From: an uncultured virus (IMG/VR IMGVR_UViG_3300015375_000848)
Taxonomy: Duplodnaviria; Heunggongvirae; Uroviricota; Caudoviricetes
Direction: 5' to 3' (one strand)
IMG/VR virus record: IMGVR_UViG_3300015375_000848
Length of the DNA: 64,000 nt
Each line of letters begins with the position of its first letter. Within the stretch, counting starts at the first letter, position 1. Under the pieces are notes generated by a model, which ran no database searches, was not told the DNA's origin, and was given only the letters and a program-made list of their open reading frames with translations. The translations under genes and the position numbers were made by a program. This document shows, piece after piece, positions 31,616 through 54,806 of the stretch.

Positions 31616-32260
31616 ATGTTAGACACAATCACTTGGGGTAATCCAACCCAAAAGCATTTGCCGTTTTTAGAGCCAGACAAATCACCCTTAGAAAAATTAA
31701 TTCCGCAGCTAGTTAAGTTTACCTTCCCTAAAAATTCTTCTAAAGCATGTCGGGAAGAGCTAAATGAGCTTGTAGATTGCGTAGATGCTCTTAAGAAGGA
31801 TGAGCAAGCCTTAAAACGTTACATGGCTTATGATAGGAGTCTAACACAAGTGATGGCTCAAGTCATAATTGAACAGAATCTAGGGGATAAAGGGGCTGAA
31901 ATAGTTGATAAAATAATTGATGAAACGGTTCCTTTAATAATGAAGCTAAAATTTTACTTCCAAAGACCTAGACCATATCAAATGGCGGAGTATTATAAGC
32001 TTAAACTTTTCCCTTTTTATTCTAGGTCAGCAGCATCTCCCTCTTATCCATCTGGTCATGCTCTTCAAGCGAAAGTGATTTGCCACGTTTTAGGCAATCA
32101 TTTCCCCGACAGATTTGAATATTTTGAAAGTTTAGCCACTGATGTTCAGCATAGTAGAATATATCTAGGGGTGCATTATCCTTCAGATATTGACTATTCT
32201 CTTTTCGTTGCTGAAACAATAATCCGTGACAAGGAATTCAAGGCTAAATTCTCTTTATAG
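31616..32260 (+). CDS. PAP2/haloperoxidase-family phosphatase
   Basis: KxxxxRPRP, PSYPSGH, SRxxxGVHYPSD. Confidence 0.9.
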   Translation: MLDTITWGNPTQKHLPFLEPDKSPLEKLIPQLVKFTFPKNSSKACREELNELVDCVDALKKDEQALKRYMAYDRSLTQVMAQVIIEQNLGDKGAEIVDKIIDETVPLIMKLKFYFQRPRPYQMAEYYKLKLFPFYSRSAASPSYPSGHALQAKVICHVLGNHFPDRFEYFESLATDVQHSRIYLGVHYPSDIDYSLFVAETIIRDKEFKAKFSL

Positions 32261-32705: not shown

Positions 32706-33146
32706 ATGCAGAACGAATCTTCAGCAATTATTCAAATACTTGAAGACTTAAATAAAAGTATAGAAGTCAGAGGTTTGAAAGCTACCTCCATGTTATTAAG
32801 ATTATATGACCCTAAAGATTTAGATACTAGTTTGGGTGAATATGAAAAATTCGTGATTAGTGAAGTGGCAAAAGCTTTTAATGTCGAATTTGAAGATTTA
32901 TTTTTTGGTCGCTATAAAAGAGCTAGTTATAAATATGCAATAGGTTTATGTGTTTATTACTTATATAATGTTAGAACGCTCGGTGACATACAAAAAAAGA
33001 TTTTTAAATATAAAAACAAGTCGTTGTTAAGTAAATATAGAAGAGAAATCATGAATTTTACCCCTATAGACGAAGAGGACAAAAAATTTATGAAAATTAA
33101 AAAAGACTTAGATAAAAAGATTAAAACGTATAAAATTGAAATTTAA
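32706..33146 (+). CDS. Putative DNA-binding protein (DnaA C-terminal-like HTH)
   Basis: VA..FNV...DL...R......A.....YL.....L..I pattern; weak match. Confidence 0.45.
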   Translation: MQNESSAIIQILEDLNKSIEVRGLKATSMLLRLYDPKDLDTSLGEYEKFVISEVAKAFNVEFEDLFFGRYKRASYKYAIGLCVYYLYNVRTLGDIQKKIFKYKNKSLLSKYRREIMNFTPIDEEDKKFMKIKKDLDKKIKTYKIEI

Positions 33147-34282
33147 TGAGCACTCAAGAAAATAACCAACAAGAGCAGCAACAGCAATCGCCCGCTAATC
33201 AACAACGTACTTATAATCCGTTTATTGATGTAGTAAATGAAAAGCCGTATACAACTATGTCTGTATCGGCAAATGCTGCTCAAGTAGCTTCTCCAATTCC
33301 AGAACCGAGCTATCAGCCAAATGCAATTAGGGCAAATGAAAACCCTTATAGCATGTTAAACGAAGGCATGGGTGGTGGTATGGGAGCAAGTTCTTCGGGA
33401 GCACCCCCTCCACTAAATCCCGCTCTTAACAACGTGCCAGAATCAGAGCTTAAGATGGGTGCAGAAAATGTAGCTAAACTGTTAGTTGATGGCTATGAAC
33501 AGATGCACGTTTTTGGAAACAAATGGCTACAGATTTCTCAAAGAAAATTGAGAAAAATGGTTGCTGAAGGTGAAATAGACTTATCCGTTCAAATTCCATA
33601 TGATTACGGTAAAACTATTTCGGCTGGTGAATTTATTGAGGAATTCAATGAGCAAAATAAAGATACCTTAACAGTATCAAAAGAGTTTAAAAAAGAGGTT
33701 ACTCCAGTATTAACTAGAGTATTGCAGAAGCGAGGTGCTGCTATGACTGATGAGCAGTATTTAGGATTTTTGATTATTAAAGATGTAGGACTCAAAGCTA
33801 TCATTGTAACACAAGTAAAGAACTCTATGAATGAAATGCTTAATGTAATTAAAGATTACACCTTAGCATTGAGAGAAAGCGGAGCCTCCGCACCACCTAC
33901 ACCCCCAACATCAGCCCCTAAAGCTCCCAAGCCAACGATGCCTTCAGAACCAAAATTTACCGAACCTGACCATAGTTCAGAAAGGTTCAATTTTGAAGAT
34001 AATGAAGCAGTTATGGCTGCAACTGTTCAAGCACATAAAGTTCCAGATTCAGGAAGAGCTAAAGCAATAGCTGCCAGAAAAAAAGATGAGCAAATGAAAT
34101 CTGCTTTTGAAAAAACACAAGGTGGTAATTCATACGAGCAAGCCATGAAGAGTAAAAAGACGGGTAAGCGTGGAAGAAAGCCAAAAGATTACCTACAAAT
34201 GGATGAGGAGCAAATTGCAGAGGCAATAGTATTAAGAGAAACAAAAGAGGTTGATAAGGATAAAATTCAAGGACTAGATTAA
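33146..34282 (+). CDS. Hypothetical protein upstream of the packaging ATPase
   Basis: Long ORF; low-complexity ends and an AT-hook-like KRGRKPK. Confidence 0.75.
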   Translation: MSTQENNQQEQQQQSPANQQRTYNPFIDVVNEKPYTTMSVSANAAQVASPIPEPSYQPNAIRANENPYSMLNEGMGGGMGASSSGAPPPLNPALNNVPESELKMGAENVAKLLVDGYEQMHVFGNKWLQISQRKLRKMVAEGEIDLSVQIPYDYGKTISAGEFIEEFNEQNKDTLTVSKEFKKEVTPVLTRVLQKRGAAMTDEQYLGFLIIKDVGLKAIIVTQVKNSMNEMLNVIKDYTLALRESGASAPPTPPTSAPKAPKPTMPSEPKFTEPDHSSERFNFEDNEAVMAATVQAHKVPDSGRAKAIAARKKDEQMKSAFEKTQGGNSYEQAMKSKKTGKRGRKPKDYLQMDEEQIAEAIVLRETKEVDKDKIQGLD

Positions 34283-34291: not shown

Positions 34292-34702
34292 ATGTTAAAA
34301 CAATTAGAAGAAATACATGAGTATTTGAAGACTAATTACAGATTTGGTGATGAATTATGTGAAATTTCAGAGCCTAACGAGTGGGAAGACAAACCCTATG
34401 TAGCTTGCGATGAAAAAATAATTAATTACCAAGATGGATTTTATCATGTATCGGATTTGTATAACATCCATAAAACTCTTCGTTTTAAAACAAAAGAAGA
34501 AGTTTTGCAGTTTTTTGATGGGCATAGTGAAGGATATCAATTTTATTTTGATAATCCGCAAGATGCAGCTTTTGCAATTGGAAAGCTAACTACAATAATT
34601 GATTTAATGGCTCATAAAGAGACGCAAGACGCTTTTAATAATGCTATTTCTCCACTTCAGAAAACTTACAAGTTAAGTAATGCCCATGAAGATAAAGAAT
34701 AA
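34292..34702 (+). CDS. Hypothetical protein
   Basis: ORF track. Confidence 0.65.
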   Translation: MLKQLEEIHEYLKTNYRFGDELCEISEPNEWEDKPYVACDEKIINYQDGFYHVSDLYNIHKTLRFKTKEEVLQFFDGHSEGYQFYFDNPQDAAFAIGKLTTIIDLMAHKETQDAFNNAISPLQKTYKLSNAHEDKE

Positions 34703-35012
34703 GGAGTGGATTGCTTTTAAAGAGCAGTTCTTAAATATGCTTTCTGTTTTAGGAGACGAAACGGATAATTTTATGTTTCCTGAAGAACCTGAAAACTTTG
34801 AAATATTTGTACACGAATGTGAAGTGCATCCAACTTTCATGAAAAAACAAGATTCTTTTAAAGTTGATTACGATTTTACATTATGTGAAACAAAAATTAG
34901 AACTTTATCCTTTTCTATATTTCGTGACTCTGCAAGAATTGAAATGACTTTAAAAACTGGAGAATTAAAAATTGACGAAGGAAAAGTAACATGGCAAGAG
35001 AACCCTTATTGA
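34680..35012 (+). CDS. Hypothetical protein
   Basis: ORF track. Confidence 0.6.
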   Translation: MPMKIKNKEWIAFKEQFLNMLSVLGDETDNFMFPEEPENFEIFVHECEVHPTFMKKQDSFKVDYDFTLCETKIRTLSFSIFRDSARIEMTLKTGELKIDEGKVTWQENPY

Positions 35013-35809
35013 TGGCTGCCTGCGGTAAGAAAGGTGTAGGAAAAAGCTATCAACATATGATTTTAATGAATGGATACGTAATGGGTGACCCCTATAAAGG
35101 TGTGAAGGGTAGAAAGTCTCTTATCATGGATGTAAATGATGAGTATGGGGTATATGGAGTACCCGCTTTATCATTGAATGACGTTCCTCTTTACACTGTT
35201 CACCCCCAAGTAGAAATTAGAAGAATTAGACCTTTTCACCCCGATGGTAGAAGAATGACTCTTGATGAGTGGGCTAATGCTCTTTTTTACGTTCTAAATC
35301 GGTTCCAGAACGGTCTTTTGCTAATTGAGGATATAAATAAGTTTATTGGTGACCACTTGCCACATGATTTAGTTGGTGCGATTGCTACAAATCGTCATGC
35401 TGGCTTAGATATTGTCCTTTCCTATCAATCTTTAGGTAGGATTAACACTAAGATTTGGGGTAATATGAATCTTATGAGATTTCACAAGAACGTGGAAAGT
35501 GTTGAACGTCATAAAAATAAGTTTCCTGACAAATATGAGATGATGCGCATAGCAGAAATAATAGTTAACAATGAATATCACAAAGGAAATAATCGTTTCT
35601 TCTTATATGTAGATATGGACGAAGAGAAAATAAGAGGCGAAATAAACCAAGACCAAATATTATCTGGTATTGAACAATACGTCAATGAAAAACACAATGA
35701 ACTACTTAAATCATATCTAGTTCAGCGTGAGAATGGTAAAAAGAAGCATAACTCCGAAACTGCTAAAGCAGAGGTAATTAGCCGTTTACAAGTACAATAC
35801 TTCCAATAA
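34991..35809 (+). CDS. FtsK/HerA-superfamily genome packaging ATPase (A32/P9-like)
   Basis: N-terminal Walker A GKKGVGKS, Walker B LLLIED, RH-xxxx-hhhh-xQ (RHAGLDIVLSYQ); small standalone size; next to the candidate capsid gene. Confidence 0.8.
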   Translation: MAREPLLMAACGKKGVGKSYQHMILMNGYVMGDPYKGVKGRKSLIMDVNDEYGVYGVPALSLNDVPLYTVHPQVEIRRIRPFHPDGRRMTLDEWANALFYVLNRFQNGLLLIEDINKFIGDHLPHDLVGAIATNRHAGLDIVLSYQSLGRINTKIWGNMNLMRFHKNVESVERHKNKFPDKYEMMRIAEIIVNNEYHKGNNRFFLYVDMDEEKIRGEINQDQILSGIEQYVNEKHNELLKSYLVQRENGKKKHNSETAKAEVISRLQVQYFQ

Positions 35810-35830
35810 TTTTTCTGACCTATACCCTAA

Positions 35831-35865
35831 AACGCCCCTTTCATTCTTGTTAGGGGCTTTTTTAT
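35831..35865 (+). terminator. Rho-independent terminator
   Basis: GCCCCT...AGGGGC stem followed by TTTTTT. Confidence 0.7.
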
Positions 35866-36024
35866 TGAAAATTATACACAAATTCAACATATAAGTAGGT
35901 GTAGAACAAAGTCAAAAGATTTTCTTGAAAAAGTATGCATCGTATTGAAAACGAATACTAAATTTACAATGCCTTGATTCTGTAATCGGGCAAAACAAAA
36001 TTTTTAACTCAAAATTCGTTCAAA

Positions 36025-36132
36025 ATGAACTTTAAGAAAATTGTTGGAGATGTTTTAGTAGTTACTGCTGGAGTTGCTCTTTACATGTTGGCTGTAAAGC
36101 CTATGCTTGACAGAGCTAAAGTTGGTAGCTAA
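36025..36132 (+). CDS. 35-aa membrane microprotein co-transcribed with the candidate capsid gene (MNFKKIVGDVLVVTAGVALYMLAVKPMLDRAKVGS)
   Basis: Manual translation; single TM; lies inside the terminator-bounded unit. Confidence 0.75.
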   Translation: MNFKKIVGDVLVVTAGVALYMLAVKPMLDRAKVGS

Positions 36133-36192
36133 TTAGAAGACAATCGAATTGGTTTTGTAATCAAATTCAATTAAAATTAAAAATTCAGTAAA

Positions 36193-36897
36193 ATGAGTTC
36201 AATCCAACGCTATCTTCAAATGGCGAATCGTTCTGTGAACGAACAGTTTGTCGGTGTTGACGGCTTTATTGACGATGATATGTATTTTGCTGGTGATATG
36301 AATAACTGGTTTGCTGCTGAAGGCGAAGGTGCTGCTGCACCCGTTGCTGCTCCATCAGTTATGCGTTCACAGCCTTACATTATTACCGTTTCTAACGCTT
36401 CTAACGCTGCGGTTACTATTGATGTTTTCGGTGCTTACATTTATTTGAACAATGCTGGTTTCACAGCTGGTTCTTTGACTGTTAGTAACGTAACAATCAC
36501 TTCTAACCTCTCTAACGTTACCTATTACAATCTTTTGAACCAGTCAAGCATCAGCCCTTTCACAATCGGAAGCACGCTGATTAGCTCTGTAAATGGTACA
36601 ACAAGCCAAGTGCTTCAGCCAATTACATTGACTACTCAAGATGCAAACGGTAACCAAGCGGTTAAAATCTTAACACCAGTTGTTGACCCATATCAGAACC
36701 AGTCTGGTATCGTTGACCTGAAGCAACCATTCAGAATTGACGGCTTCACAAAGCTGACATTCTCTATTTTTGCTTCTACCAGCGTTCAGTTCCAGTTCTA
36801 TCCTTCTGATACAATCAACGTTGCTCGTGGATTGGGTGGTAACCCAGTTAGCAAGCAATATGGTAGTCCAAAGATTATCAGACCAGCTGCACGCTAA
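36193..36897 (+). CDS. Candidate major capsid protein (jelly-roll, beta-rich) with acidic N-terminal leader
   Basis: About 175-aa alternating beta-strand domain, Cys-free; GCT/TCT/AAC-rich codons suggest high expression; flanked by terminators; adjacent to the A32-like ATPase. The fold is inferred. Confidence 0.6.
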   Translation: MSSIQRYLQMANRSVNEQFVGVDGFIDDDMYFAGDMNNWFAAEGEGAAAPVAAPSVMRSQPYIITVSNASNAAVTIDVFGAYIYLNNAGFTAGSLTVSNVTITSNLSNVTYYNLLNQSSISPFTIGSTLISSVNGTTSQVLQPITLTTQDANGNQAVKILTPVVDPYQNQSGIVDLKQPFRIDGFTKLTFSIFASTSVQFQFYPSDTINVARGLGGNPVSKQYGSPKIIRPAAR

Positions 36898-36915
36898 TAT
36901 CAGCGGTAAAATAAT

Positions 36916-36958
36916 AAAAGGGGCTGAAGCGGGAATTTCTCTTGCTTCGCCCTTTTTT
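36916..36958 (+). terminator. Strong Rho-independent terminator
   Basis: AAAAGGGGC-T-GAAGCGGGA / TCTTGCTTC-GCCCTTTT stem followed by a T tract. Confidence 0.8.
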
Positions 36959-36983: not shown

Positions 36984-37391
36984 ATGTCAAATTCAAGAGT
37001 AAACTTATATAGCTATACAGCAGCTTCAAACCCTTACTTTGTCAAGTCTCTAGCACATAAATATGGCTACGAGTATGATAAAGAACAAAGTTTGGCTTCT
37101 GTGTTACAACAACTAGTAAGCTATGAAGGTGAGCCCGTTTTGATGGAAATTATTGAGAATAATCCTGATAAAGACCTTTTCATGGAATACTATGATAAAA
37201 AGTATGCCAAAAAAGAGGAAGAGAAAAAATCAACACAGCCTAGTGAGATTGCTTCTTATATGAACTTTACTGGTCAGCTTGCTGCTGTTCAGCAACTTCA
37301 GGAAAATAAAAAAATTACTACAGAAACTAGCTTAATGGTTTTAGCTGGTGCTGTTTTGATTGCGTTTGCAATCGTAACTACTAAAAAGTAA
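36984..37391 (+). CDS. C-terminally anchored virion membrane protein
   Basis: C-terminal TM followed by KK; MNFTG motif. Confidence 0.75.
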   Translation: MSNSRVNLYSYTAASNPYFVKSLAHKYGYEYDKEQSLASVLQQLVSYEGEPVLMEIIENNPDKDLFMEYYDKKYAKKEEEKKSTQPSEIASYMNFTGQLAAVQQLQENKKITTETSLMVLAGAVLIAFAIVTTKK

Positions 37392-37394
37392 ATT

Positions 37395-38084
37395 ATGGCT
37401 TTAGATGCTTTACAAGTAACAAGAAGCTTACTTGCATATCAAGTGGTAAACGACAGAGGGTCACTTGAAAGATTATTGAAAAGAAACGGTGTTTCAGTAC
37501 CAGAAAACGCAAGTGATGCTGAAGTCATTTCTGCTTCGCTTTTCACGGCTGGTAAAAGTGCTAATTTCAAAAAAGAGCTAGCCTCTCTTCTATCGGGTAA
37601 GGCAAAAACAGCTGGAGAGAAATTTTCTTCTTTTGTAGGTCAAGAAATGGGTTTTACTGGTCTTGACGATTTTTCCTTTACTGGTATGGAAGGTTTTGAA
37701 AGTTGGAACGGTGGAACACAACAGTTAAGTCTTGCCGTAAAACAAGGAATTGATAGTGGTAAAATAAAAACGAAGAAAGATAAGACTGGTGCTGGTAAAG
37801 CATTATCCTCAATCGGTACTTTTTTCAAGGAGAATGTTCTTACAAGAGAAAATATTGATACAGCTGTAAATATTGGTCTGACAAAGATTAACACGCAGAC
37901 TCAAAATAAAGCTAATAAAATAGCTCAAGAGGGTCTTGTAATACAGCAATATCAAGATGATATCAGAAACCAGCAAGCTTCAAAAGCCAAAGGTGGTTTA
38001 AGCACTGGCGCATGGGTAGCTATCGGTTTAGGGGTGGCTGCTATCGTTGGAATTGGAATATATCTTTCAACCAGAAAAAAATAA
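37395..38084 (+). CDS. C-terminally anchored virion membrane protein
   Basis: C-terminal TM followed by RKK; three F[VT]G motifs. Confidence 0.75.
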   Translation: MALDALQVTRSLLAYQVVNDRGSLERLLKRNGVSVPENASDAEVISASLFTAGKSANFKKELASLLSGKAKTAGEKFSSFVGQEMGFTGLDDFSFTGMEGFESWNGGTQQLSLAVKQGIDSGKIKTKKDKTGAGKALSSIGTFFKENVLTRENIDTAVNIGLTKINTQTQNKANKIAQEGLVIQQYQDDIRNQQASKAKGGLSTGAWVAIGLGVAAIVGIGIYLSTRKK

Positions 38085-38087
38085 AAG

Positions 38088-38549
38088 ATGAAAACAAGAG
38101 ATATTGTAATACTTGCTGTAATCGGTTTAGCTGCTTATTATCTTTTAATGGGTAAGAAAAAACCCTTAAAAAAAGAGGATATGCCAGCTGGTAAGGGCGG
38201 GTCTGCTACTCCCGTTTTCAAGGGTAATGGTGCCCCACAACCGCAACCTAGACCAACTGCAACTGTAGTTACTGTTGACGATTTGAGCAAAAAGGTAAAG
38301 CCAATGTTGGTGCAGACAGATTATGTAATGCCTGATATTGAGAAGCCAGCACTTAAGCAGCCAATAGAAGTGCCAGCACTAAATTTAATTCCGAATGTTT
38401 ATGATAGGGGTGTAAATCAACCTCTACCTAATAAAGATGCTTACTATGCAAGCTTTGCTGGTCAGTGTAGCGAAGACATACAGACCGCATGTGCATGTGC
38501 TAGCTCTAAAAAAGAAAAATTTAATATAGATATTCCAAAATTACCATAA
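38088..38549 (+). CDS. N-anchored Pro-rich membrane protein
   Basis: N-terminal TM followed by KKK; SFAG motif. Confidence 0.7.
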   Translation: MKTRDIVILAVIGLAAYYLLMGKKKPLKKEDMPAGKGGSATPVFKGNGAPQPQPRPTATVVTVDDLSKKVKPMLVQTDYVMPDIEKPALKQPIEVPALNLIPNVYDRGVNQPLPNKDAYYASFAGQCSEDIQTACACASSKKEKFNIDIPKLP

Positions 38550-38776
38550 TGGCAGAGGCTAAAGAAATACTAGATAAGCTCAAAAATTTAAAGTCAACTT
38601 CTACTTCAATGGATATGAAAAGAAGAAAAGGGCTAATAAACGGGGGGTTAATTGGTATGGCTGGCGGTGTGCTTATTGGGCTTACCAGAAATTACAATTT
38701 GATTTCTTCCGCAATTGTTGGAGCTTTGATAGGGGGTCTTGTAACATCTGTAATTCTTCCTAAATCTGATGACTAA
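38549..38776 (+). CDS. Glycine-zipper two-TM protein
   Basis: GxxxG-rich hydrophobic hairpin. Confidence 0.7.
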   Translation: MAEAKEILDKLKNLKSTSTSMDMKRRKGLINGGLIGMAGGVLIGLTRNYNLISSAIVGALIGGLVTSVILPKSDD

Positions 38777-39204
38777 TGGCAAAAAATGTTACTAAAATAG
38801 TTGCTGGGGCACTTGCAGTTGTAGGTGCATATTTTATTTTTAAATATTTTCAAAAACCAAAGTCAACACAGCCCGTTCAAGGTGAGCCAGACGTTATTGC
38901 GCCTCCATCATCAAAACCAGATAGTGGATATCCTCTGAAAAGAGGAAGCACTGGAAGGTTAGTATCATCTGTTCAGCAGTGGGTTTTAAAAATTGACCCT
39001 ACTCTGTTACCAAAGTATGGTGCAGATGGGAAATTTGGAGCAGAAACGGAGACGGCATTGCAAAACCTTATTGGTAAGAAAACTATTGATTCTAATTCCG
39101 ATATAGATAAACTTATTTTAAAATATAATCAGAAAAAATTTCCTTTGGTGGCTACACCAAAAGGGGGTACTTCACCAGTTTATAAACCATTTGGAACATT
39201 CTAA
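38776..39204 (+). CDS. N-anchored protein with peptidoglycan-binding domain (PG_binding_1)
   Basis: LKRGSTG..V..VQ....ADGKFG.ETE.AL. Confidence 0.8.
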   Translation: MAKNVTKIVAGALAVVGAYFIFKYFQKPKSTQPVQGEPDVIAPPSSKPDSGYPLKRGSTGRLVSSVQQWVLKIDPTLLPKYGADGKFGAETETALQNLIGKKTIDSNSDIDKLILKYNQKKFPLVATPKGGTSPVYKPFGTF

Positions 39205-39222
39205 ACAAAAAAAAACCATAAA

Positions 39223-39513
39223 ATGGAAAACACGGTTAAAGACAAAGATTTAACTGCCAATCAATTGTATAAAATTTATAGAGATGAAGGAGGTACATTA
39301 AAGTTTTCAGACTGGCTTACAAGGGAAAAAACAAAAGGAATTTTTCCATTGAATGGCGATTTGAATACTGGAGTACAAGAAACTCTAAAAAAAGTAAAAG
39401 AAGAAGAAATGAAAAAAACTTATTTAGGATTCCCCGTTTCCACTTTGCTTATTGCGGGTGGTGTAATTATATTAGCTGTAGTAGCAGCAAAAATGTTAAA
39501 AAAGAAAAACTGA
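39223..39513 (+). CDS. C-terminally anchored membrane protein
   Basis: C-terminal TM followed by KKKN. Confidence 0.7.
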   Translation: MENTVKDKDLTANQLYKIYRDEGGTLKFSDWLTREKTKGIFPLNGDLNTGVQETLKKVKEEEMKKTYLGFPVSTLLIAGGVIILAVVAAKMLKKKN

Positions 39514-39518
39514 TTATT

Positions 39519-39803
39519 ATGAAATATGGTCAATTTTTTGTAGGTCTTTTGGTTGGGGCAGTGGCTATGCATGTTTTGCATAAAATGGGATATATGTCAA
39601 ATAATCCTAAAAATGCACCTGACGTTGTAAAAGATGTAAACCAAGAAGAACTAACTAATTATTCAGACCCACTGCGTAAAAAGTATGATATAGTTTTAAA
39701 GCCTAATAAATACTCTAAAAAGGTAGTTGAAAAGGCCAAAGACCTTACTCGTGGTAGGTACGAAGTTGACTTAAATAAAGTAAAACAGCCAGTATCACTA
39801 TAG
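39519..39803 (+). CDS. N-anchored membrane protein
   Basis: N-terminal TM. Confidence 0.65.
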   Translation: MKYGQFFVGLLVGAVAMHVLHKMGYMSNNPKNAPDVVKDVNQEELTNYSDPLRKKYDIVLKPNKYSKKVVEKAKDLTRGRYEVDLNKVKQPVSL

Positions 39804-39835
39804 TTTGATTATTAAAGGAAAAGTATCATTTTACT

Positions 39836-40633
39836 ATGACCTATACACTTTGGACAAGATATGAGCCTATAATGATTAAGCTTGTGTTACAGACTACATC
39901 CCCTCAAGATATAGTCTTGAAAGTGTATGACCCAAATCAAGCTAATACTTTTTTCACTAATAGAGAGAAGAGCGTAAACGGAGTTGAAGAGCTTTTTGTA
40001 AGGATGCCTTTATCGCCAAGCGTTGTAAAGCTTGAGGTGTACAATAAAAAAACGGGTAATGTACCCAAAGGTCAAGACCCCTCTTTTTCAGTTTTGGCAA
40101 TTAAAAAAGAAGACCTTGATATAACTCTGCCCAAAACCAAAATGGACACTTTTGCTGTTCGTAATTTTGTTGCGTTTGCTCAAAAGTTTTCATACAATGC
40201 TGGGTGGTTGTCTGCTCCTAAAGATTATTTAAGTTCGGTGGGAGCTTTTAAAATTGAATACTTGCCTTTCATCATTAATTCAAAAGGCGAGAAAATGTCT
40301 ACGCCAGCAAGAATTAGTACAAAAAACGGTAGGATTCAAGTTTCACAGCAAGCTTTTCGTGAATATACTATACCTATGCGTATGGCTATTTTGCTTCATG
40401 AATTCAGCCATTTTTATTTGAATTCTGACATATCCGATGAAACGGAAGCTGATTTAAACGGATTGACAATTTACTTAGGATTGGGGTATCCTATAAGAGA
40501 AGCTTATCAAGCTTTTACCAGCACTTTTGTTGGGCATCCAACAGACCAAAACAAACAGCGTTACGATATTATTGATAAATTTATAAGAGATTATATTCAA
40601 GAATATAAACTGAAAGATGTTTATGCTAAATAA
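39836..40633 (+). CDS. Zincin (HExxH) metalloprotease
   Basis: TPARI..I.V....F......R.AILLHEFSH...E.EAD; N-terminal beta domain. Confidence 0.85.
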   Translation: MTYTLWTRYEPIMIKLVLQTTSPQDIVLKVYDPNQANTFFTNREKSVNGVEELFVRMPLSPSVVKLEVYNKKTGNVPKGQDPSFSVLAIKKEDLDITLPKTKMDTFAVRNFVAFAQKFSYNAGWLSAPKDYLSSVGAFKIEYLPFIINSKGEKMSTPARISTKNGRIQVSQQAFREYTIPMRMAILLHEFSHFYLNSDISDETEADLNGLTIYLGLGYPIREAYQAFTSTFVGHPTDQNKQRYDIIDKFIRDYIQEYKLKDVYAK

Positions 40634-40639
40634 TTAAAA

Positions 40640-41194
40640 ATGGCACAGAAATACAGCTTTTATAGAGATTTACCGTCATGGGCAAAAGGCGTTTTTGTTA
40701 TTGGAGTAGGTGTAGTTGGATATATTATCCTTAATAAAGTATATAAAGGGATTAAAGGTGCAGCAGATAAGAGTAAAGAAAGTAAAACCACTAAAGATAT
40801 TCAGCAAGAGCTAAAAGATTTACAAAATCAAGGAGTTAGAAAAAGTTTTGCAGATTCTCAATACAAGGCTTGGGCAGACATAATTCAGCAACAATTTGAC
40901 GGCTGCGACTCAAAACAGAATGTCTTTGATATGAGTGACCCCCTTTTAGGATGGGCTGGGTCGTTTAGCGGTAGTGGGAAGCTAGTTGCTGGAATATTTA
41001 ATCAGTTAAAAAATAATACTGATTTTGCTGCTTTAGTAGCTGCTTACGGAGTCCGCACTTATGACCAGTGTGGTTTATGGACTGGAGATGTAACTGGAAA
41101 TATTTACAAAGCCATAGCTGATGAGTTAGACGAGGGAGAGAGAAGAGAATTGAACAAAAAATTAGCAACAAAAGGAATAACATACAAAGTTTAA
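40640..41194 (+). CDS. N-anchored virion membrane protein
   Basis: TM near the N-terminus plus a helical domain. Confidence 0.7.
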   Translation: MAQKYSFYRDLPSWAKGVFVIGVGVVGYIILNKVYKGIKGAADKSKESKTTKDIQQELKDLQNQGVRKSFADSQYKAWADIIQQQFDGCDSKQNVFDMSDPLLGWAGSFSGSGKLVAGIFNQLKNNTDFAALVAAYGVRTYDQCGLWTGDVTGNIYKAIADELDEGERRELNKKLATKGITYKV

Positions 41195-41204
41195 AATAAA
41201 AATT

Positions 41205-41741
41205 ATGCCAGCACCAGTAGCAGTATTTTTAGCACCAACAGCGGGGGGTATAGCTCTAATAAGTAAACGAAAACAAGCAAGAAGAGCTCAAGCAGCCTCT
41301 AATAAATGGTCTACACAATTTCCTTTAGTAGATGACTTCGCCTCCCAGCAAGCTATGATTAATCAAGCTCAATTGCAACTGAAAACTCTTCAGGCTCAAG
41401 GGGGAAAGTCCAAGCAAGTAAAAGCTGAAATAGCCCAATTATCTAAGTGGATTGGTGTCATGAAAGCTCAACTTAAGGATTTGAAAACGGGCTTAGATAT
41501 GGCAAGTACCAATATTCAAAAAGCTCCTTCTCCTAAAGCAATTTCAGAATCATCTCTTCCCGTTGCTCAAATAACTACTGGAACAGACAATATTCCTACT
41601 GGAGTATCTTCAACTGACGTAGCGCAAAATGTAGCAAATGGCGGTAATTTAGCTACAGCAACAAAAAAGCCTACAAACTGGCTTTTGATTGGTGGAGTGG
41701 TAGTAGGTGTTGTTCTTTTATTTAGAATGTTTAAAAAGTAA
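41205..41741 (+). CDS. C-terminally anchored coiled-coil protein
   Basis: TNWLL + TM + KK end, similar to 30455. Confidence 0.7.
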   Translation: MPAPVAVFLAPTAGGIALISKRKQARRAQAASNKWSTQFPLVDDFASQQAMINQAQLQLKTLQAQGGKSKQVKAEIAQLSKWIGVMKAQLKDLKTGLDMASTNIQKAPSPKAISESSLPVAQITTGTDNIPTGVSSTDVAQNVANGGNLATATKKPTNWLLIGGVVVGVVLLFRMFKK

Positions 41742-41744
41742 TTT

Positions 41745-42329
41745 ATGGCAATAGATATGATTGAAAATAATGAGCTTGGTGCTTTAGCCCCAAGTCGTTT
41801 AGGTTTAAGAGAATTCGCTGATGATAAATGGGCGTATAAAAACTATACGGGGGGGGACGATTTTTTCAATCTTTTGGGAAGCCGTAAGAAGAAAATGGAA
41901 AAATATAGCAGTTGGGCTAGGACAAAGTTTGAAAATCTATCTACCGATTGTGATAAAATTCAAGGTAGTATTGAAATCATCAATAATGAGATTCAGCTTC
42001 TTTTGAAGCAAAAGCAAACTTTAAACATAAAAACTCAACTCAAAGAAACAAATCAAATTCTGGCTGATTTCAAGAGAACGCAAATTGAGCAAGATTGTGA
42101 GAGAATTCTAACTCAAGCAAAATCTGAAAAAGAAAGAGAACAAACACTTGCTACCCTTACACAGCTAAGTGATGTTTCAGTTGGAAAAGCGCAACAAGAA
42201 TTAGCTGGTTTACAAGCTGGTCTTTCTCCACAAGAGGCTGCCTCTCAAGCTAACATGAAAAAGTATTTATTATATGGTGGTATAGGTTTGGGTGCTATAC
42301 TTTTAATTGCCCTAATTACAAAAAAATGA
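41745..42329 (+). CDS. C-terminally anchored coiled-coil protein
   Basis: Cys-paired helical hairpin like 30455; C-terminal TM followed by KK. Confidence 0.7.
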   Translation: MAIDMIENNELGALAPSRLGLREFADDKWAYKNYTGGDDFFNLLGSRKKKMEKYSSWARTKFENLSTDCDKIQGSIEIINNEIQLLLKQKQTLNIKTQLKETNQILADFKRTQIEQDCERILTQAKSEKEREQTLATLTQLSDVSVGKAQQELAGLQAGLSPQEAASQANMKKYLLYGGIGLGAILLIALITKK

Positions 42330-42817
42330 AAGGCTTAAAAACTATATCGTTAATCGCTGGTCTAGGTATTATTGGATATGCTGTATATAGATATTATCTA
42401 AAACAAATAGATTTTATCAAGGATATTACATATCAGGTAACTGGATTACGTGTTAAGGAGTTCAAGAAGAACAACGTATCAATTGATATCACAGCTCTTA
42501 TCTTCAATGCTTCAAATGTGGAAGCAACAGTTACTCAAATGTATCTGGATGTTTTTATAAACGGTGTCAAGGTTGGTAACGTAAACGAAATCAAAGATAT
42601 CCCTATTTTGCCCAAGCAGTCTAGTAGTATTCAATTCAACTTTTCTTTTGACCCTCAATTAATTGCTAAAAATATCGTAGATTTGGTGACGTTAAGTGTG
42701 GCTGCAAAAGATATCGTAATTGATATCAAGGGCTATATTAGGGTAAAAAGTGGGTTTTTGAGCACACCTTTACCTTTTGAATATAGAAATAATTTAAAAA
42801 GCTACTTAAAAAAATAA
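42326..42817 (+). CDS. LEA_2/WHy-domain membrane protein
   Basis: N-terminal TM; I.N.SN....V......V..NG..VG.....I.P...S.....F pattern. Confidence 0.8.
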   Translation: MKGLKTISLIAGLGIIGYAVYRYYLKQIDFIKDITYQVTGLRVKEFKKNNVSIDITALIFNASNVEATVTQMYLDVFINGVKVGNVNEIKDIPILPKQSSSIQFNFSFDPQLIAKNIVDLVTLSVAAKDIVIDIKGYIRVKSGFLSTPLPFEYRNNLKSYLKK

Positions 42818-42823
42818 CCCCAA

Positions 42824-43096
42824 ATGGGAGCAACTAACGTACATACAGAAACATTACTGACTGGGACTTTGACAATAAGTTCAGCTGATAATGTTTTACG
42901 AGTAAGTGTAATTTGTAGGAGCGGTACAGTCACGGCTATTGGCGGTGCTTCTTTTCAAGGAAATCCATCTTCTGCAGTGCAATTTGCAACGGGTGAGGGA
43001 ATTACTTTGACTGCTCCAAATGCTAGTCAGCCAATTGATGGATTTACGGTTGATGCTAGCAGCGGAGTTGCTGAATTAGTTATTTCATATCAATAA
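42824..43096 (+). CDS. Small all-beta structural protein (possible vertex/penton or fibre adaptor)
   Basis: All-beta composition; lies just before the fibre genes. Confidence 0.45.
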   Translation: MGATNVHTETLLTGTLTISSADNVLRVSVICRSGTVTAIGGASFQGNPSSAVQFATGEGITLTAPNASQPIDGFTVDASSGVAELVISYQ

Positions 43097-43818: not shown

Positions 43819-46800
43819 ATGAGTACAACATTTCTAGGAGGAGACGGGTTCGGTTTTATAGGCGGTGGTGCTGGAAGCGGTACTGGGTCTGCGGGAACTA
43901 GTGGTACAAGCTTTGGTAGCTCGGGAACCAGTGGTAATTCTGGCTCTAGCGGTACTAGCGGGAATAGCGGTAGCTCTGGTACAAGTGCTTTATCTGGTAC
44001 TTCTGGAACCGCTGGCACTTCAGGAACACATGGTTCTTCAGGTTCCTCTGGAACTTCAGGATTAACTGGTTCGTCTGGAACGAGTGGTGATTCTGGCTCT
44101 AGCGGTACTAGCGGTGATGCTGGGAGTTCTGGAACATCAGGTCAATCAGGAACTTCTGGAGAAACTGGCACTTCTGGCGCAGACGGTTCTAGTGGAACCT
44201 CTGGTGAAAGTGGCACTTCAGGTGCAGACGGCTCTAGCGGAACATCTGGTGAAACTGGTACTTCAGGTGCAGACGGCTCTAGCGGAACTTCTGGAACATC
44301 AGCACAAGACGGAACAAGTGGAATAGATGGTACTTCTGGAACTAGTGGTGAATCAGGTACATCAGGTACCGATGGCTCTTCTGGAACTTCTGGTTCTAGC
44401 GGAACTTCTGGCTCTAGCGGTACATCAGCGACAGACGGTTCTTCAGGTACAAGTGGATTTGAAGGAACTTCAGGTACAAGCGGTGAAAACGGAACTTCAG
44501 GCATAAACGGTACTTCTGGTCAAGACGGCTCTTCTGGAACAAGTGGAACAGCTGGTTCAAGTGGAGAATCTGGTACATCAGGAACCGATGGGTCTTCAGG
44601 GACTTCTGGGGAATCAGGTACAACTGGTACATCAGGAACCGATGGCTCTTCAGGAACCTCTGGCTCTAGTGGGGAATCTGGTACTTCTGGAACATCTGGA
44701 GAAAGCGGAACATCTGGAGAATCAGGTAGTTCTGGCTCTAGTGGCACATCAGGAACTGATGGCTCAAGCGGTACGAGTGCAGAAACGGGAACTTCAGGTA
44801 CAGATGGTTCTTCTGGAACCTCTGGCGAAAATGGAACTTCGGGCACAAGTGGAGAAAACGGTACTTCAGGAACAGATGGAAGCAATGGAACATCTGGCAT
44901 AGATGGAACCTCTGGAACCTCTGCTACAAGCGGGTCTGCTGGTACATCTGGTACTTCAGCAACCGATGGCTCTAGCGGTACAAGTGGCGATAACGGAACT
45001 TCAGGTACAGACGGAAGCTCTGGAACTTCTGGAGCGGATGGCTCCTCTGGGACTAGCGGTACATCAGGTTCAAGTGGTACAGACGGAAGCTCTGGAACTA
45101 CTGGAACGGACGGTTCTTCTGGAACAAGTGGAGATTCAGGTACTTCAGGTACGGATGGCTCATCAGGTACTTCTGGTGAAAATGGCACTTCAGGCACTAG
45201 TGGCGAAAATGGAACTGCTGGTACATCGGGAACAGATGGCTCTTCGGGCACAGACGGCTCAAGCGGTACATCTGGAACGAGTGGCTCTTCAGGAACCGCT
45301 GGTACATCGGGTGCTACTGGCACATCTGGTACAGACGGCTCCTCTGGAACAAGTGGAGAAACGGGTACTTCAGGAACCGATGGCTCTTCTGGAACTTCAG
45401 GCGAAAACGGAACTTCAGGAACAGATGGTTCTTCTGGTACATCAGCCTCATCGGGCAGCTCTGGAACTTCAGGAACAGATGGTTCTTCTGGCACTTCAGG
45501 TACAGACGGGTCTTCAGGTACGGATGGTTCTAGTGGTACGTCAGGAACAGATGGTTCTTCAGGTACTTCGGGTACAGACGGCTCTTCAGGTACGGATGGC
45601 TCCTCTGGAACTTCTGGAGAAAATGGTTCTAGCGGTACCTCTGGCACCTCTGGTACAGCAGGAAGCTCTGGAACATCTGCAACCGATGGTTCTTCAGGTA
45701 GTTCGGGAACCTCTGGTGAAAACGGAACATCGGGAACAGACGGCTCTAGTGGTACTTCTGGCACATCTGCCAGTTCGGGTTCTTCTGGAACCTCTGGTAC
45801 AGATGGCTCTTCAGGCACAGACGGCTCAAGCGGTACTTCTGGAACCTCTGGAAGCTCGGGAACCGATGGCTCAAGTGGAACATCAGGTACAGACGGGTCT
45901 AGTGGTACTTCTGGCACATCAGCCAGTTCTGGTTCTTCTGGAACCTCTGGTACAGATGGCTCTTCAGGCACAGACGGCTCTAGCGGTACTTCTGGAACAG
46001 ATGGTTCTTCAGGAACCTCTGGTACTTCAGGAACCGATGGCTCAAACGGCACTTCTGGAACATCAGGTACAGACGGCTCAAATGGCACTTCTGGAACAGC
46101 TGGAACCTCCGCTAGCGATGGTAGTTCAGGTACATCAGGAACTGATGGCTCTTCTGGGACTAGTGGAACTTCGGGTTCTTCAGGAACATCAGGCACGTCT
46201 GGCACCTCTGGAACAAGTGGTACTGATGGAACAACGTGTGAGAGTTATACAATTATAGCTCCTTGTGGAACTACAACAACGTCCACAACCACATCTACAA
46301 CAACTACTGGTGCAGTTTGTGAGTGTTATTCATTAACTAATGATGGAGACCCCACAAATACAAATACAACAAATTATACCGATTGCGATGGCAACCCGCA
46401 GACAATAACTAATAAGGTCTTTAATTCGGCTGCTACTTATTTCTGTGCGTTATCTGGAACAATCACGTTCTCTTCTGGACTAACTGTTATTCAGGTAGCA
46501 GATACTCCTTCTACATGTAACGGGTGTGGAGCTTCTTCTACAACATCTACAACCACTTCGACCACCACGTCAGTATCTTTAGAATCTGGTAGTTACTCAT
46601 ATTCTTACACCGATTGTAATGGTACTCCAGTTTCAGGAACACTTAGCGATTGCCAGCAATTAACATTCTGTGCGATAAGAGGCTCTGTAACTTGGGCTCA
46701 TACGCTGGTGGATAATGGAGTATGTGCTGGAACAAGCGGAACATCTGGTACTTCAGGCACTTCTGGTACATCTGGTACTTCAGGCTCCTCTGGAACAAGC

Positions 46801-48840
46801 GGTTCTTCAGGAACTTCTGGTACTTCAGGCTCCAGTGGCTCTTCAGGAACTAGCGGAACCTCTGGTTCATCTGGAACTAGCGCAACAGACGGCTCTAGCG
46901 GTACTTCTGGAACAGATGGAAGCTCGGGAACTAGTGGAACAGATGGCTCTTCAGGAACATCTGGTTCTAGCGGAACGAGTGCATCTTCAGGAAGCTCTGG
47001 TACCGATGGCTCTTCTGGTACATCGGGAACATCAGGTTCTTCAGGAACCAGCGGTACTTCTGGCTCTTCTGGTACTTCTGGAACAGATGGAAGCTCTGGA
47101 ACAAGTGGTGAAAGTGGAACAGCTGGAACTTCTGGCTCAAGTGGCTCTAGCGGTACTAGTGCATCTAGCGGTACAGCTGGAACATCAGGAAACACTGGTT
47201 CCTCTGGAACATCAGGACAAAATGGAGTAGCGGGTGGATTAGTATTGTATCTAAATGAATCTGTCAATACTAGTAGTGCAATAGGAACACCTACATATAA
47301 ACAGTGGAGCGCAACTGCAACTGGAGCAGCTGAACAAACTATTACTACATCAATTGCTGGTAATACGAGAACACTTTTTGCAACTTTTGCGACTGATTCT
47401 AATGTTCCTAATGTAACCAGCATACCCTCTGGTCTTTGGGCTTGGGTAACTCATTTCTCCATAGATAGTAATGATACTCTTCAAGTAGATGTAGAGCTCT
47501 ATAAATGTGATTCAACGGGTGGTAACATAACATTATTGGGAACCACCAACCTTGATACCGAGTCCATGACCACTAACGTTATCAAGGAATTTTTTACTGA
47601 TTTATTCTTAGGTCAAACTGGTGCGAATGCTACAGATAGGCTTTACTGCCAAATCTATGTAGAACATAATGGCGGTTCAAATAAGAATATAACATTTTAT
47701 TCAGAAGGAACAAGTAATTATTCATACGCACAAACTACGTTTACTCCCCCTAGCGGAACGAGTGGAACAAGTGGTGTAAATGGAACTAGTGGTACTGCTG
47801 GCTCTTCAGGTACTTCAGCGACTTCGGGCTCTTCAGGCACAACGGGCACTTCTGGAACAGATGGCTCTAGCGGAAGCTCTGGTACCTCTGGTACATCAGG
47901 CTCTTCTGGGACAAGCGCAACAGATGGTTCTTCTGGTACATCAGCCAGCTCTGGTTCCTCTGGAACTAGCGGAACAGACGGCTCTTCGGGTACTTCAGGT
48001 TCTAGCGGTTCTTCAGGTACCTCTGGAACAGATGGCTCAAGCGGAACCTCTGGCACCTCTGGGACAAGCGGTTCTTCAGGGACAAGTGCAACAGACGGCT
48101 CTTCTGGTACATCAGCCAGCTCGGGCTCTTCTGGAACAAGCGGAACAGATGGTTCTTCGGGTACTTCAGGTTCAGATGGAAGCTCTGGAACGAGTGGAAC
48201 AGATGGCTCAAGCGGTACATCAGCCAGCTCGGGCTCTTCAGGAACAAGTGGAGTAAACGGAACTTCGGGTACAGATGGCTCTTCTGGTACTAGCGCATCT
48301 TCAGGAAGCTCTGGCACATCAGGTACTTCGGGTACAGATGGCTCTTCTGGTACATCAGCTAGCTCGGGGTCAAGTGGAACGGATGGCTCTTCAGGTACTT
48401 CTGGCTCTTCTGGAACATCAGGAACTGCTGGCTCTTCTGGAACTAGCGGAACCGATGGTTCAAGTGGTACTTCGGCATCAAGCGGTAGCTCTGGAACGTC
48501 AGGAACATCGGGTACGGCTGGCTCATCAGGTACGGCTGCTACGGATGGCTCCAGTGGCACATCTGGTGAAAACGGAACTTCGGGAACCTCTGGCTCTTCG
48601 GGAACGTCAGCTAGCTCGGGCTCAAGCGGAACGTCAGGAACCTCTGGTTCTAGTGGAACGTCAGGTTCTTCTGGAACATCAGGAACTGCTGGCTCCAGCG
48701 GAACAGACGGCTCTTCGGGAACCTCTGGAAGCTCTGGTTCTTCAGGAACTGCAGCTACGAGCGGTAGCGCAGGAACCTCTGGAAATACAGCGGAGTTTTC
48801 TGGAACAAGTAGCACTTCAATAACACTCCCATTAACTTAA
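43819..48840 (+). CDS. Giant collagen-like (Gly-Thr/Ser-Ser) fibre protein with internal Cys/Thr-rich and beta-sandwich domains
   Basis: About 1290 aa of Gly-X-Y in three blocks; globular inserts at about 46235-46730 and 47230-47750. Confidence 0.85.
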   Translation: MSTTFLGGDGFGFIGGGAGSGTGSAGTSGTSFGSSGTSGNSGSSGTSGNSGSSGTSALSGTSGTAGTSGTHGSSGSSGTSGLTGSSGTSGDSGSSGTSGDAGSSGTSGQSGTSGETGTSGADGSSGTSGESGTSGADGSSGTSGETGTSGADGSSGTSGTSAQDGTSGIDGTSGTSGESGTSGTDGSSGTSGSSGTSGSSGTSATDGSSGTSGFEGTSGTSGENGTSGINGTSGQDGSSGTSGTAGSSGESGTSGTDGSSGTSGESGTTGTSGTDGSSGTSGSSGESGTSGTSGESGTSGESGSSGSSGTSGTDGSSGTSAETGTSGTDGSSGTSGENGTSGTSGENGTSGTDGSNGTSGIDGTSGTSATSGSAGTSGTSATDGSSGTSGDNGTSGTDGSSGTSGADGSSGTSGTSGSSGTDGSSGTTGTDGSSGTSGDSGTSGTDGSSGTSGENGTSGTSGENGTAGTSGTDGSSGTDGSSGTSGTSGSSGTAGTSGATGTSGTDGSSGTSGETGTSGTDGSSGTSGENGTSGTDGSSGTSASSGSSGTSGTDGSSGTSGTDGSSGTDGSSGTSGTDGSSGTSGTDGSSGTDGSSGTSGENGSSGTSGTSGTAGSSGTSATDGSSGSSGTSGENGTSGTDGSSGTSGTSASSGSSGTSGTDGSSGTDGSSGTSGTSGSSGTDGSSGTSGTDGSSGTSGTSASSGSSGTSGTDGSSGTDGSSGTSGTDGSSGTSGTSGTDGSNGTSGTSGTDGSNGTSGTAGTSASDGSSGTSGTDGSSGTSGTSGSSGTSGTSGTSGTSGTDGTTCESYTIIAPCGTTTTSTTTSTTTTGAVCECYSLTNDGDPTNTNTTNYTDCDGNPQTITNKVFNSAATYFCALSGTITFSSGLTVIQVADTPSTCNGCGASSTTSTTTSTTTSVSLESGSYSYSYTDCNGTPVSGTLSDCQQLTFCAIRGSVTWAHTLVDNGVCAGTSGTSGTSGTSGTSGTSGSSGTSGSSGTSGTSGSSGSSGTSGTSGSSGTSATDGSSGTSGTDGSSGTSGTDGSSGTSGSSGTSASSGSSGTDGSSGTSGTSGSSGTSGTSGSSGTSGTDGSSGTSGESGTAGTSGSSGSSGTSASSGTAGTSGNTGSSGTSGQNGVAGGLVLYLNESVNTSSAIGTPTYKQWSATATGAAEQTITTSIAGNTRTLFATFATDSNVPNVTSIPSGLWAWVTHFSIDSNDTLQVDVELYKCDSTGGNITLLGTTNLDTESMTTNVIKEFFTDLFLGQTGANATDRLYCQIYVEHNGGSNKNITFYSEGTSNYSYAQTTFTPPSGTSGTSGVNGTSGTAGSSGTSATSGSSGTTGTSGTDGSSGSSGTSGTSGSSGTSATDGSSGTSASSGSSGTSGTDGSSGTSGSSGSSGTSGTDGSSGTSGTSGTSGSSGTSATDGSSGTSASSGSSGTSGTDGSSGTSGSDGSSGTSGTDGSSGTSASSGSSGTSGVNGTSGTDGSSGTSASSGSSGTSGTSGTDGSSGTSASSGSSGTDGSSGTSGSSGTSGTAGSSGTSGTDGSSGTSASSGSSGTSGTSGTAGSSGTAATDGSSGTSGENGTSGTSGSSGTSASSGSSGTSGTSGSSGTSGSSGTSGTAGSSGTDGSSGTSGSSGSSGTAATSGSAGTSGNTAEFSGTSSTSITLPLT

Positions 48841-48867
48841 AATGTGCACTAATTTCAGAAGATATAA

Positions 48868-51600: not shown

Positions 51601-51621
51601 TAATTAATTAACCCAAAATAT

Positions 51622-51978
51622 ATGTTAGTAGCATTAATTAACCCGCCAGCAAAAAAAGTTCTTCAAACAACACCGTTTGCAACTGAAGAAATTTTAGCAC
51701 CTCAAATGACCGCAAAGTGTACAAGACTTGTAATTGGTGATTCATCTGAAACAATAGAATTTGATATTCGTTTTGGTGAAGTCTACAATACGACTAATCC
51801 AGATGGTTCAATCCGACCAATGTTTAAGCTTATGGTGCACCACCATTTACGATTTACCCAAAGTGAACTATCAGATTGGGGCACAGACGATAGTTATGTA
51901 TATTATAAAATAGCGGAAAGGCTTGGATTTCAAATAACTTCATTAACAGAGGTACAAGGATTAAATTTCGGCAACTAA
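51622..51978 (+). CDS. Hypothetical protein (possible fibre assembly factor)
   Basis: Sits between fibre genes; WGTDDSY....IA..LG motif. Confidence 0.55.
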   Translation: MLVALINPPAKKVLQTTPFATEEILAPQMTAKCTRLVIGDSSETIEFDIRFGEVYNTTNPDGSIRPMFKLMVHHHLRFTQSELSDWGTDDSYVYYKIAERLGFQITSLTEVQGLNFGN

Positions 51979-51981
51979 TAC

Positions 51982-54804: not shown

Positions 54805-54806
54805 AC

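Follow-up and report, generated by a model that had tools for sequence, protein, structure and literature searches.

The question that this locus raises is whether a virus of bacteria can exceed 64 kb of genome without a tail, building its particle from a packaging ATPase and a capsid protein that consists of a single jelly roll. Here we examined a 64,000-nucleotide stretch of DNA from an uncultured virus (IMG/VR record IMGVR_UViG_3300015375_000848; the whole of this stretch is called the window throughout), for which a preliminary description made from the sequence had proposed such a virus on the basis of three neighbouring genes. The three open reading frames (ORFs) on which that proposal was built are present and encode proteins of 272, 35 and 234 amino acids (aa), namely a P-loop ATPase, a short transmembrane (TM) peptide and a beta-rich protein (Table 1). 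The analyses make it probable that the region is the morphogenesis core of a tailless dsDNA jelly-roll virus of bacteria, presumably with an internal membrane, in a lineage with linear genomes of about 70-130 kb: the 234-aa protein models as a jelly roll, the ATPase stands beside it, and no terminase, portal or HK97 capsid gene came to light in the window or in related genomes, so that the proposal of a tailless virus with a packaging ATPase and a single-jelly-roll capsid candidate gained support.

The ATPase carries the Walker A motif GKKGVGKS (G12 K13 K14 G15 x G17 K18 S) and the Walker B motif LLLIED (hhhhED, with E113 and D114 invariant), and both fall on a RecA-like core, as in P-loop enzymes of the FtsK/HerA type. 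Residues R135, H136, Q146 and R150 do not vary among 32 aligned homologues (49-86% identity), and the RH...Q signature that had been read from the single sequence therefore holds for the family. No Pfam family matches the protein at E ≤ 0.01 and its sole PHROG match is a weak one to a Zot-like family (8e-4); among the aligned homologues 20 match PF01935 (HerA central domain, best E 1e-6) and 12 match Zot, and the whole family amounts to 324 clusters at 90% identity. A search of PDB sequences with the ATPase alone returned nothing, and with its profile only a P-loop stretch of ClpB (E 0.026). The AlphaFold model (predicted local distance difference test, pLDDT, 90.2; predicted template modelling score, pTM, 0.86) was more informative: B204 of Sulfolobus turreted icosahedral virus (STIV) and STIV2 is its top Foldseek match (best E 1.1e-9) and fills the first 15 matches listed, and VIA also ranks B204 first, 1.8 Z units ahead of the next family. 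Because both comparisons place B204 first, we call the enzyme FtsK/HerA-type and B204-like; as modelled, its nearest solved relative is the packaging NTPase of a tailless, membrane-containing jelly-roll virus. Approximately 55 C-terminal residues, helical and basic, have no counterpart in B204. Judging by its predicted fold, the 272-aa protein is most likely the motor that packages the genome.

The 234-aa protein has no Pfam or PHROG family match and no match above 0.87 in the protein atlas, and the clusters of its family bear only the name 'hypothetical protein', numerous as they are (785 at 90% identity, and 563 at 50% identity, 274 of the latter with E ≤ 1e-10). Neither this protein nor the ATPase (tblastn), nor 14 kb of the surrounding DNA (megablast), found a match in 50,697 GenBank phage records. 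AlphaFold (AF2), given an alignment of 109 sequences, returned a model (pLDDT 83.7, pTM 0.73, with pLDDT above 88 across most blocks of the beta sandwich) that consists of a helix (residues 3-18), a disordered arm (19-56) and a single beta sandwich (approximately 57-222). The beta-rich character claimed from the sequence is seen in this model, which has one jelly-roll domain and not the two of the Bamfordvirae; because the folded domain is too small, the protein is not a double jelly roll, and the single short capsid domain that the preliminary description had foreseen was recovered. The Foldseek matches in PDB are led by capsid proteins of cowpea mosaic virus (CPMV), beet black scorch virus (BBSV), satellite tobacco mosaic virus (STMV), picornaviruses and turnip yellow mosaic virus (TYMV), weakly (E 5e-4 to 1e-2, TM-scores 0.3-0.4), and jelly-roll capsid proteins likewise head the VIA list with weak scores. 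On this model the fold is a jelly roll of the viral-capsid/nucleoplasmin type and supports no claim of a specific kinship.

Conservation and linkage bear on the role of this jelly roll. Four relatives served for comparison, G001, G002 and the distant G010 and G006. The 234-aa ORF is the most conserved full-length ORF against G001 and G002 (85 and 80% identity, compared with 75 and 70% for the ATPase), and it belongs to the small core that is kept in G010 and G006 (44 and 45%). All of the 22 related records that bear the jelly-roll gene are matched by the ATPase profile. A distant jelly-roll query led to an ATPase upstream in each of the 10 loci that have upstream DNA, and of the 10 loci to which the ATPase led in metagenome-assembled genomes (MAGs) of bacteria and archaea, seven have the jelly-roll gene 0.3-2.3 kb downstream, the contigs of the other three ending within 0.6 kb; a locus search that used the single distant protein P0142 as query found none. 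In these loci the ATPase thus stands beside the capsid candidate, with no terminase detected (the large terminase subunit, TerL, in 0 of the 22 records). The jelly-roll gene also has a transcription unit to itself and the peptide, enclosed by two hairpins that are each followed by a T-run; equally stable folds appeared in 0 of 200 shuffles for either hairpin, and the one behind the jelly-roll gene is the top-ranked terminator in a consensus terminator scan, so that the terminator-bounded unit claimed before stands. A Kyte-Doolittle scan finds one hydrophobic helix in the 35-aa product, in agreement with its earlier designation as a TM peptide, and a TM peptide of 35-44 aa directly precedes the jelly-roll gene in all five genomes compared.

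Because of its top conservation, its membership of the core, its own terminator-bounded unit, the TM peptide and the linkage to the ATPase, we infer that this jelly roll of 234 aa forms the bulk of the shell as the major capsid protein. In one metatranscriptome run, the contigs that fall on the 14-kb stretch cover 36075-36658, within the peptide/jelly-roll unit, plus a low-complexity repeat, which is a weak hint at a capsid role, since DNA carry-over is possible and contigs cannot rank genes. A GCA-type low-complexity stretch at 31195-31262 draws contigs of many other organisms and produces an artefactual depth spike in the bin 30934-31400.

It could be argued that the virus is tailless and that the 234-aa protein nevertheless serves as a penton, at the vertices in some other way or in association with the membrane, the shell being built mainly from an unrecognised protein encoded elsewhere. 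We regard this as unlikely. Among the other ORFs that are conserved in the distant relatives, none resembles a double-jelly-roll capsid protein in size and composition; conservation is highest for the 234-aa gene, which also has a terminator-bounded unit of its own; and the shorter paralogues of 149-223 aa, with variable ORFs downstream, suit a penton better.

The absence of tailed-phage genes was then followed beyond the right end of the window. G001 (84,379 bp), collinear with the window, extends 21 kb further, G002 (84,229 bp) spans this region in the opposite orientation, and G010 (72,545 bp) is flagged in IMG/VR as having inverted terminal repeats (ITRs) and is 100% complete according to CheckV. 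The 22 related records measure 35-102 kb, six of them being at least 90% complete (CheckV, IMG/VR); those rated 98-100% complete have 70,173-102,228 bp, in keeping with the earlier claim of a genome larger than 64 kb, and contigs binned into MAGs reach 101,828 and 132,486 bp. The 73 ORFs of at least 35 aa in the window, compared with PHROGs and Pfam, gave no match to families of terminases, portals, HK97 capsids, tail tubes or baseplates, as the preliminary description had noticed for its late region. The same holds for tailed-phage hallmarks in 50 ORFs of G001, taken from insertions and from the additional 21 kb (PHROGs and Pfam), and for terminase, portal, HK97 capsid and tail proteins in G010, where 103 of 110 ORFs were compared with PHROGs and the other seven, together with nine large ORFs for a second time, with Pfam (the ORFs of 1018 and 870 aa, scanned with Pfam only, had no match). 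Six-frame searches with PF03237 (Terminase_6N), PF03354 (TerL_ATPase), PF05065 (HK97 Phage_capsid) and PF04860 (Phage_portal) were negative in all 22 records for each family, the positive controls of these searches having matched in 3-5 of 14 genomes. In neither arm is there any conserved, unannotated ORF left of the size of a terminase, portal or HK97 capsid gene. The general family scans of the window, the additional DNA of G001 and G010 also turned up no DNA polymerase, protein-primed ones included, and the window has no tRNA gene.

Several observations weigh against this interpretation. At the level of sequence, the 234-aa protein has only chance matches in PDB (E > 0.6), as has its family profile (one, E 0.88). 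At the level of structure, the BFVD matches of its model mix capsid proteins with C1q/TNF-like heads of collagen proteins, non-capsid jelly rolls score alike (Ena pili 5.2, nucleoplasmins approximately 5, phage tail proteins 5.1), and no major capsid protein of the Helvetiavirae is among the matches listed. Pfam Pox_A32 (PF04665) matched 0 of the 22 records at E ≤ 0.01, its control being positive in Sulfolobus acidocaldarius; of the label 'A32/P9-like packaging ATPase' given in the preliminary description, the small single domain with B204 as nearest structure has stood, and membership of the Pfam A32 family has not. CheckV rates G001 at 75% and G002 at 90% completeness; an HK97 fold in the other ORFs is excluded by family searches and conservation and not by structure, two proteins having been folded; and the Atlas clusters of a conserved 265-aa neighbour are automatically labelled Uroviricota. 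Fibre-type genes are also present, as the collagen proteins have PHROG 'tail fibre' matches and G001 has Peptidase_S74 chaperone domains and a match to phrog_12032, 'short tail fibre'.

One alternative is a highly divergent tailed phage whose hallmark genes escape the profiles, whose jelly roll is a decoration protein, a cement protein or the head of a fibre, and whose ATPase handles DNA in some other way. Such a phage appears improbable to us. Two TerL families, the portal and the HK97 capsid are absent from 22 records with working controls, PHROGs, which hold very divergent phage families, are blank in this respect for the window, the G001 additional DNA and the complete G010, no suitably sized conserved ORF is available for the missing genes, and the best structural match of the ATPase is the packaging enzyme of tailless viruses. 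The PHROG 'tail' matches within the window are limited to the collagen repeats of four large fibre-like proteins and to weak lytic-domain matches.

A linear plasmid or conjugative element, in which the ATPase would be a translocase like VirB4, TrwB or HerA and the jelly roll a subunit of a pilus or appendage, is the least probable of the explanations considered. The ATPase is a single domain of 272 aa like B204 and not a VirB4 or coupling protein of 400-900 aa, several families of peptidoglycan hydrolases and endolysins are encoded (in the window and in G010), no relaxase or type IV secretion system family appeared in the general family scans of the window, the G001 additional DNA and G010, and IMG/VR lists the 22 records as viral, including the six nearly complete ones. 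We therefore retain a tailless jelly-roll virus as the interpretation of the locus.

Table 1. Genes and signals of the window that are discussed in the text (window coordinates; identities to relatives in the order G001, G002, G010, G006 where four are given).
Feature	Position	Strand	Basis
PAP2-family lipid phosphatase	31616..32260	+	Pfam PF01569, E 8e-13; 63/64/43/38% identity to G001/G002/G010/G006
Conserved 146-aa core protein	32706..33146	+	no family match; 23-42% identity in G001, G002, G010, G006
Conserved 378-aa protein, Q/P-rich low-complexity parts, basic C-terminus	33146..34282	+	no family match; 53/47/33/33% identity to the four relatives
Candidate packaging ATPase (272 aa, FtsK/HerA superfamily)	34991..35809	+	motifs and predicted structure, closest to STIV2 B204
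Intrinsic-terminator-like hairpin and T-run, 3' of the ATPase gene	35834..35862	+	dG -14.3, z -3.7
35-aa single-pass membrane peptide, directly upstream of the jelly-roll gene	36025..36132	+	TM helix, residues 6-24
Candidate major capsid protein (234-aa single jelly roll)	36193..36897	+	AF2 model, conservation, linkage
Strong intrinsic-terminator-like hairpin and T-run, 3' of the jelly-roll gene	36916..36957	+	dG -24.0, z -4.6
Small late proteins in a row, a single TM helix in most; candidates for the virion membrane	36984..42817	+	Kyte-Doolittle scan
Conserved 265-aa protein, HExxH motif (LLHEFSH); candidate zinc metallopeptidase of the morphogenesis block	39836..40633	+	74/71/45/45% identity to the four relatives
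90-aa beta-rich protein, second capsid candidate of the preliminary description	42824..43096	+	no family match; 47/50% identity to G001/G002
Four large collagen-repeat proteins (1673, 910, 940, 891 aa) and one small ORF; candidate surface fibres	43819..57482	+	Pfam Collagen, E 6e-159 to 1.5e-49

The ends of these genomes are those of linear molecules in G010, where the ITR is perfect and 123 bp long (L037 1-123, L040 15423-15545) and the genes at either end point inward. The final 114 nt of G002 are GT-rich and telomere-like and recur, exactly and in inverted orientation, 792-905 nt from the opposite end, and because of this the contig may overshoot the true terminus. The window opens with a 21-nt unit repeated perfectly 2.1 times (positions 1-45), possibly near a genome end, as the contigs of G001 and G002 begin within approximately 1.3 kb of the equivalent position.

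An internal membrane in the virion is suggested by the genes downstream of the jelly-roll gene. A hydrophobic helix was found by the Kyte-Doolittle scan in 10 of the 16 ORFs between 36025 and 43096, and such an abundance of small membrane proteins in the late region is what viruses with an internal membrane display; the ORFs at 36984, 38549 and 42326 are kept even in the distant G010 and G006. The PAP2 phosphatase may be tied to the same presumed membrane. Four of the small late membrane proteins (36984, 37395, 38088, 41745) have the motif [FYW]x[NS][FYA]xG, against 0.24 expected in this block and with 0 of 500 shuffles reaching four, for a regular expression composed after viewing the sequences; in the remaining proteome it occurs three times against 2.6 expected (ORF 30455 is listed among the carriers), and the arm of the capsid candidate (DMYFAG) fits it inexactly.

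The jelly-roll gene has further copies in the relatives. Each of the four fully assembled ones has at least one additional jelly-roll paralogue of 149-223 aa, which in G001 lies approximately 33-35 kb downstream of the jelly-roll gene, beyond the right end of the window. The ORFs 3' of this paralogue vary, with a 903-aa protein specific to G001 and, in G010, a 415-aa beta-propeller protein one ORF downstream, an arrangement that would fit a penton base bearing a spike for receptor binding. In two relatives the full-length jelly-roll gene is present twice. In G006 (102 kb), and only there, we found a tandem double jelly roll of 397 aa (L025 10001-11194; G006 17225-18418), each domain of which is 32-33% identical to the 234-aa protein of the window, in addition to a single-domain jelly-roll gene and three shorter paralogues.

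If the locus is indeed the core of a tailless virus, the terminator-bounded unit would yield the 35-aa membrane peptide and the 234-aa major capsid protein, whose N-terminal helix and flexible arm may reach inward to a lipid membrane filled by the at least 10 small single-pass proteins encoded just downstream. The ATPase, placed at a capsid vertex, would pump the linear genome into the preformed shell. The shorter jelly-roll paralogue would build the vertices, together with the variable genes that follow it (such as that for the beta-propeller protein in G010), and collagen-like fibres would decorate the surface of the particle.

As regards the host, the preliminary description had named the Bacteroidota. 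In favour of this, Shine-Dalgarno motifs precede 6 of 67 ORFs compared with 8.2 +/- 2.8 at random positions, that is, they are not used (upstream regions are 55% A), and 4 of the 10 MAG bins that bear the ATPase are Bacteroidota or Ignavibacteria. Against it, the bins belong to a mixture of taxa (Flavobacteriales, Sediminibacterium, Bacteroidetes, Ignavibacteria, two Gammaproteobacteria, Opitutia, Bathyarchaeia, Planktophila and one other) and the Bacteroidota promoter motif TAnnTTTG is not enriched (56 occurrences against 82 expected). The 132-kb contig binned as Sediminibacterium has a GC (guanine plus cytosine) content of 31% and small inward-facing ORFs at both ends, and because it looks viral from end to end it gives no evidence on the host. 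A Bacteroidota host is accordingly plausible, a guess drawn from the missing Shine-Dalgarno usage and the four bins. The stretch 34000-38000 or its close relatives were found in at least 20 sequencing runs from 10 studies, at least half of the sampled words being present in 15 runs, and the run labels are freshwater, sediment, estuary, drinking-water and aquatic metagenomes; the run that matches best may be the sample from which the window came.

Among the other genes of the window, the 265-aa HExxH protein equals the ATPase and the capsid candidate in conservation; it has no Pfam or PHROG match, its sole atlas lead is a DUF4344 metallopeptidase at 0.87, and on its motif it is possibly a metallopeptidase of maturation or entry. 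Upstream of the ATPase gene, the 378-aa protein may possibly be a scaffold or a DNA-binding protein. The 90-aa protein was not detected in G010 or G006. The best-conserved ORF against the distant relatives (56 and 53%) is that of a basic 93-aa protein at 27261-27542 with a weak DUF5754 match. The collagen region 43819-57482 has a GC content of 42-52% for the most part, compared with approximately 35% elsewhere, and the relatives add Peptidase_S74 domains, 2OG-Fe(II) oxygenases, a sulfotransferase and many glycosyltransferases; in G001 the additional DNA encodes RecT, an exonuclease, glycosyltransferases, 2OG-Fe(II) oxygenases, a sulfotransferase and an APS-kinase-like protein. The occurrence of collagen proteins together with modifying enzymes in the relatives suggests that the fibres are modified, possibly glycosylated. 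At 13397-25763 there is a block of the counter-defence or injected-protein type, with a 998-aa polyvalent protein (DUF5661 and ART-PolyVal), a MoxR-type AAA ATPase, DUF7192, a DUF2958 protein and a glucosaminidase; in relatives it includes fused giant ORFs of up to 2093 aa and, in G010, an ArdA domain. The minus strand at 57474-63937 encodes a carbamoyltransferase, three glycosyltransferase-like proteins and a 121-aa SET-domain protein, a domain that is unusual for a phage.

Going further, it is possible, though we advance it as a speculation that has the odds somewhat against it, that these viruses form a globally distributed, undescribed lineage of high rank, with linear ITR genomes of 70-130 kb, a membrane, a single-jelly-roll shell without detectable kin and collagen-like, probably glycosylated fibres resembling the fibrils of giant viruses in miniature, in which two-copy and fused jelly rolls are intermediates of the transition from single to double. 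Were the tailless interpretation true, the membrane-containing jelly-roll building plan would scale to 70-130 kb in bacteria, several times the described sizes, and the group would be large and common in freshwater and sediment (10 studies; 563 clusters at 50% identity). Automatic pipelines may file it under the tailed phages because the Atlas clusters of a neighbouring protein are labelled Uroviricota. Natural single, duplicated and fused jelly-roll genes would allow the origin of double-jelly-roll capsids to be tested, and a bacterial system for collagen-like, glycosylated virion fibres would become available.

Placing these results beside known systems, the likeness to STIV and STIV2 (Turriviridae) lies in the structure of the ATPase, with 18% identity to B204 and the additional C-terminal residues as differences; STIV itself infects archaea, has a genome of approximately 17 kb and builds its capsid from a double-jelly-roll protein. 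With PRD1-type viruses (Tectiviridae) the lineage shares a linear ITR genome, membrane proteins and a putative jelly-roll vertex protein. The PRD1 genome has approximately 15 kb, whereas the genomes described here are approximately 5-9 times larger, with no protein-primed DNA polymerase detected; a double-jelly-roll protein like P3 was not found either (PF09018, 0 of 22 records), in a search that is uninformative because its controls also gave no match. The Helvetiavirae (Sphaerolipoviridae and Matsushitaviridae, e.g. P23-77) resemble the lineage in that a single-jelly-roll candidate is encoded beside an FtsK/HerA ATPase, membrane proteins are abundant and jelly-roll genes occur in more than one paralogous copy; in some of the relatives used here two full-length copies are adjacent. 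In contrast, no sequence match or listed structural match to their capsid proteins was obtained, the window has one copy, and their genomes are smaller, approximately 17-31 kb compared with 70-130 kb, cultivated single-jelly-roll archaeal viruses reaching up to approximately 31 kb.

The prokaryotic double-jelly-roll viruses of Yutin et al. 2018, mostly metagenomic, have genomes of approximately 7-18 kb according to the portions of that paper that concern us, and share with the present lineage a core formed by a jelly-roll capsid gene and an FtsK-HerA packaging ATPase (PMC5894146); the differences are the single jelly roll and the sizes found here, 70-102 kb in the records and 101.8 and 132.5 kb in the MAG contigs. 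The sections of the ANME-1 virome study that treat tailless viruses describe ones of approximately 10 kb only (PMC9894754). The articles reached by a full-text literature search, in the portions it returned, and the GenBank phage collection contain no description of such a lineage, which agrees with the earlier suspicion that it is an undescribed one. What sets it apart from the B204, PRD1 and Helvetiavirae systems is its genome size, a capsid candidate without detectable kin, the lack of a detectable protein-primed polymerase and its collagen fibre genes.

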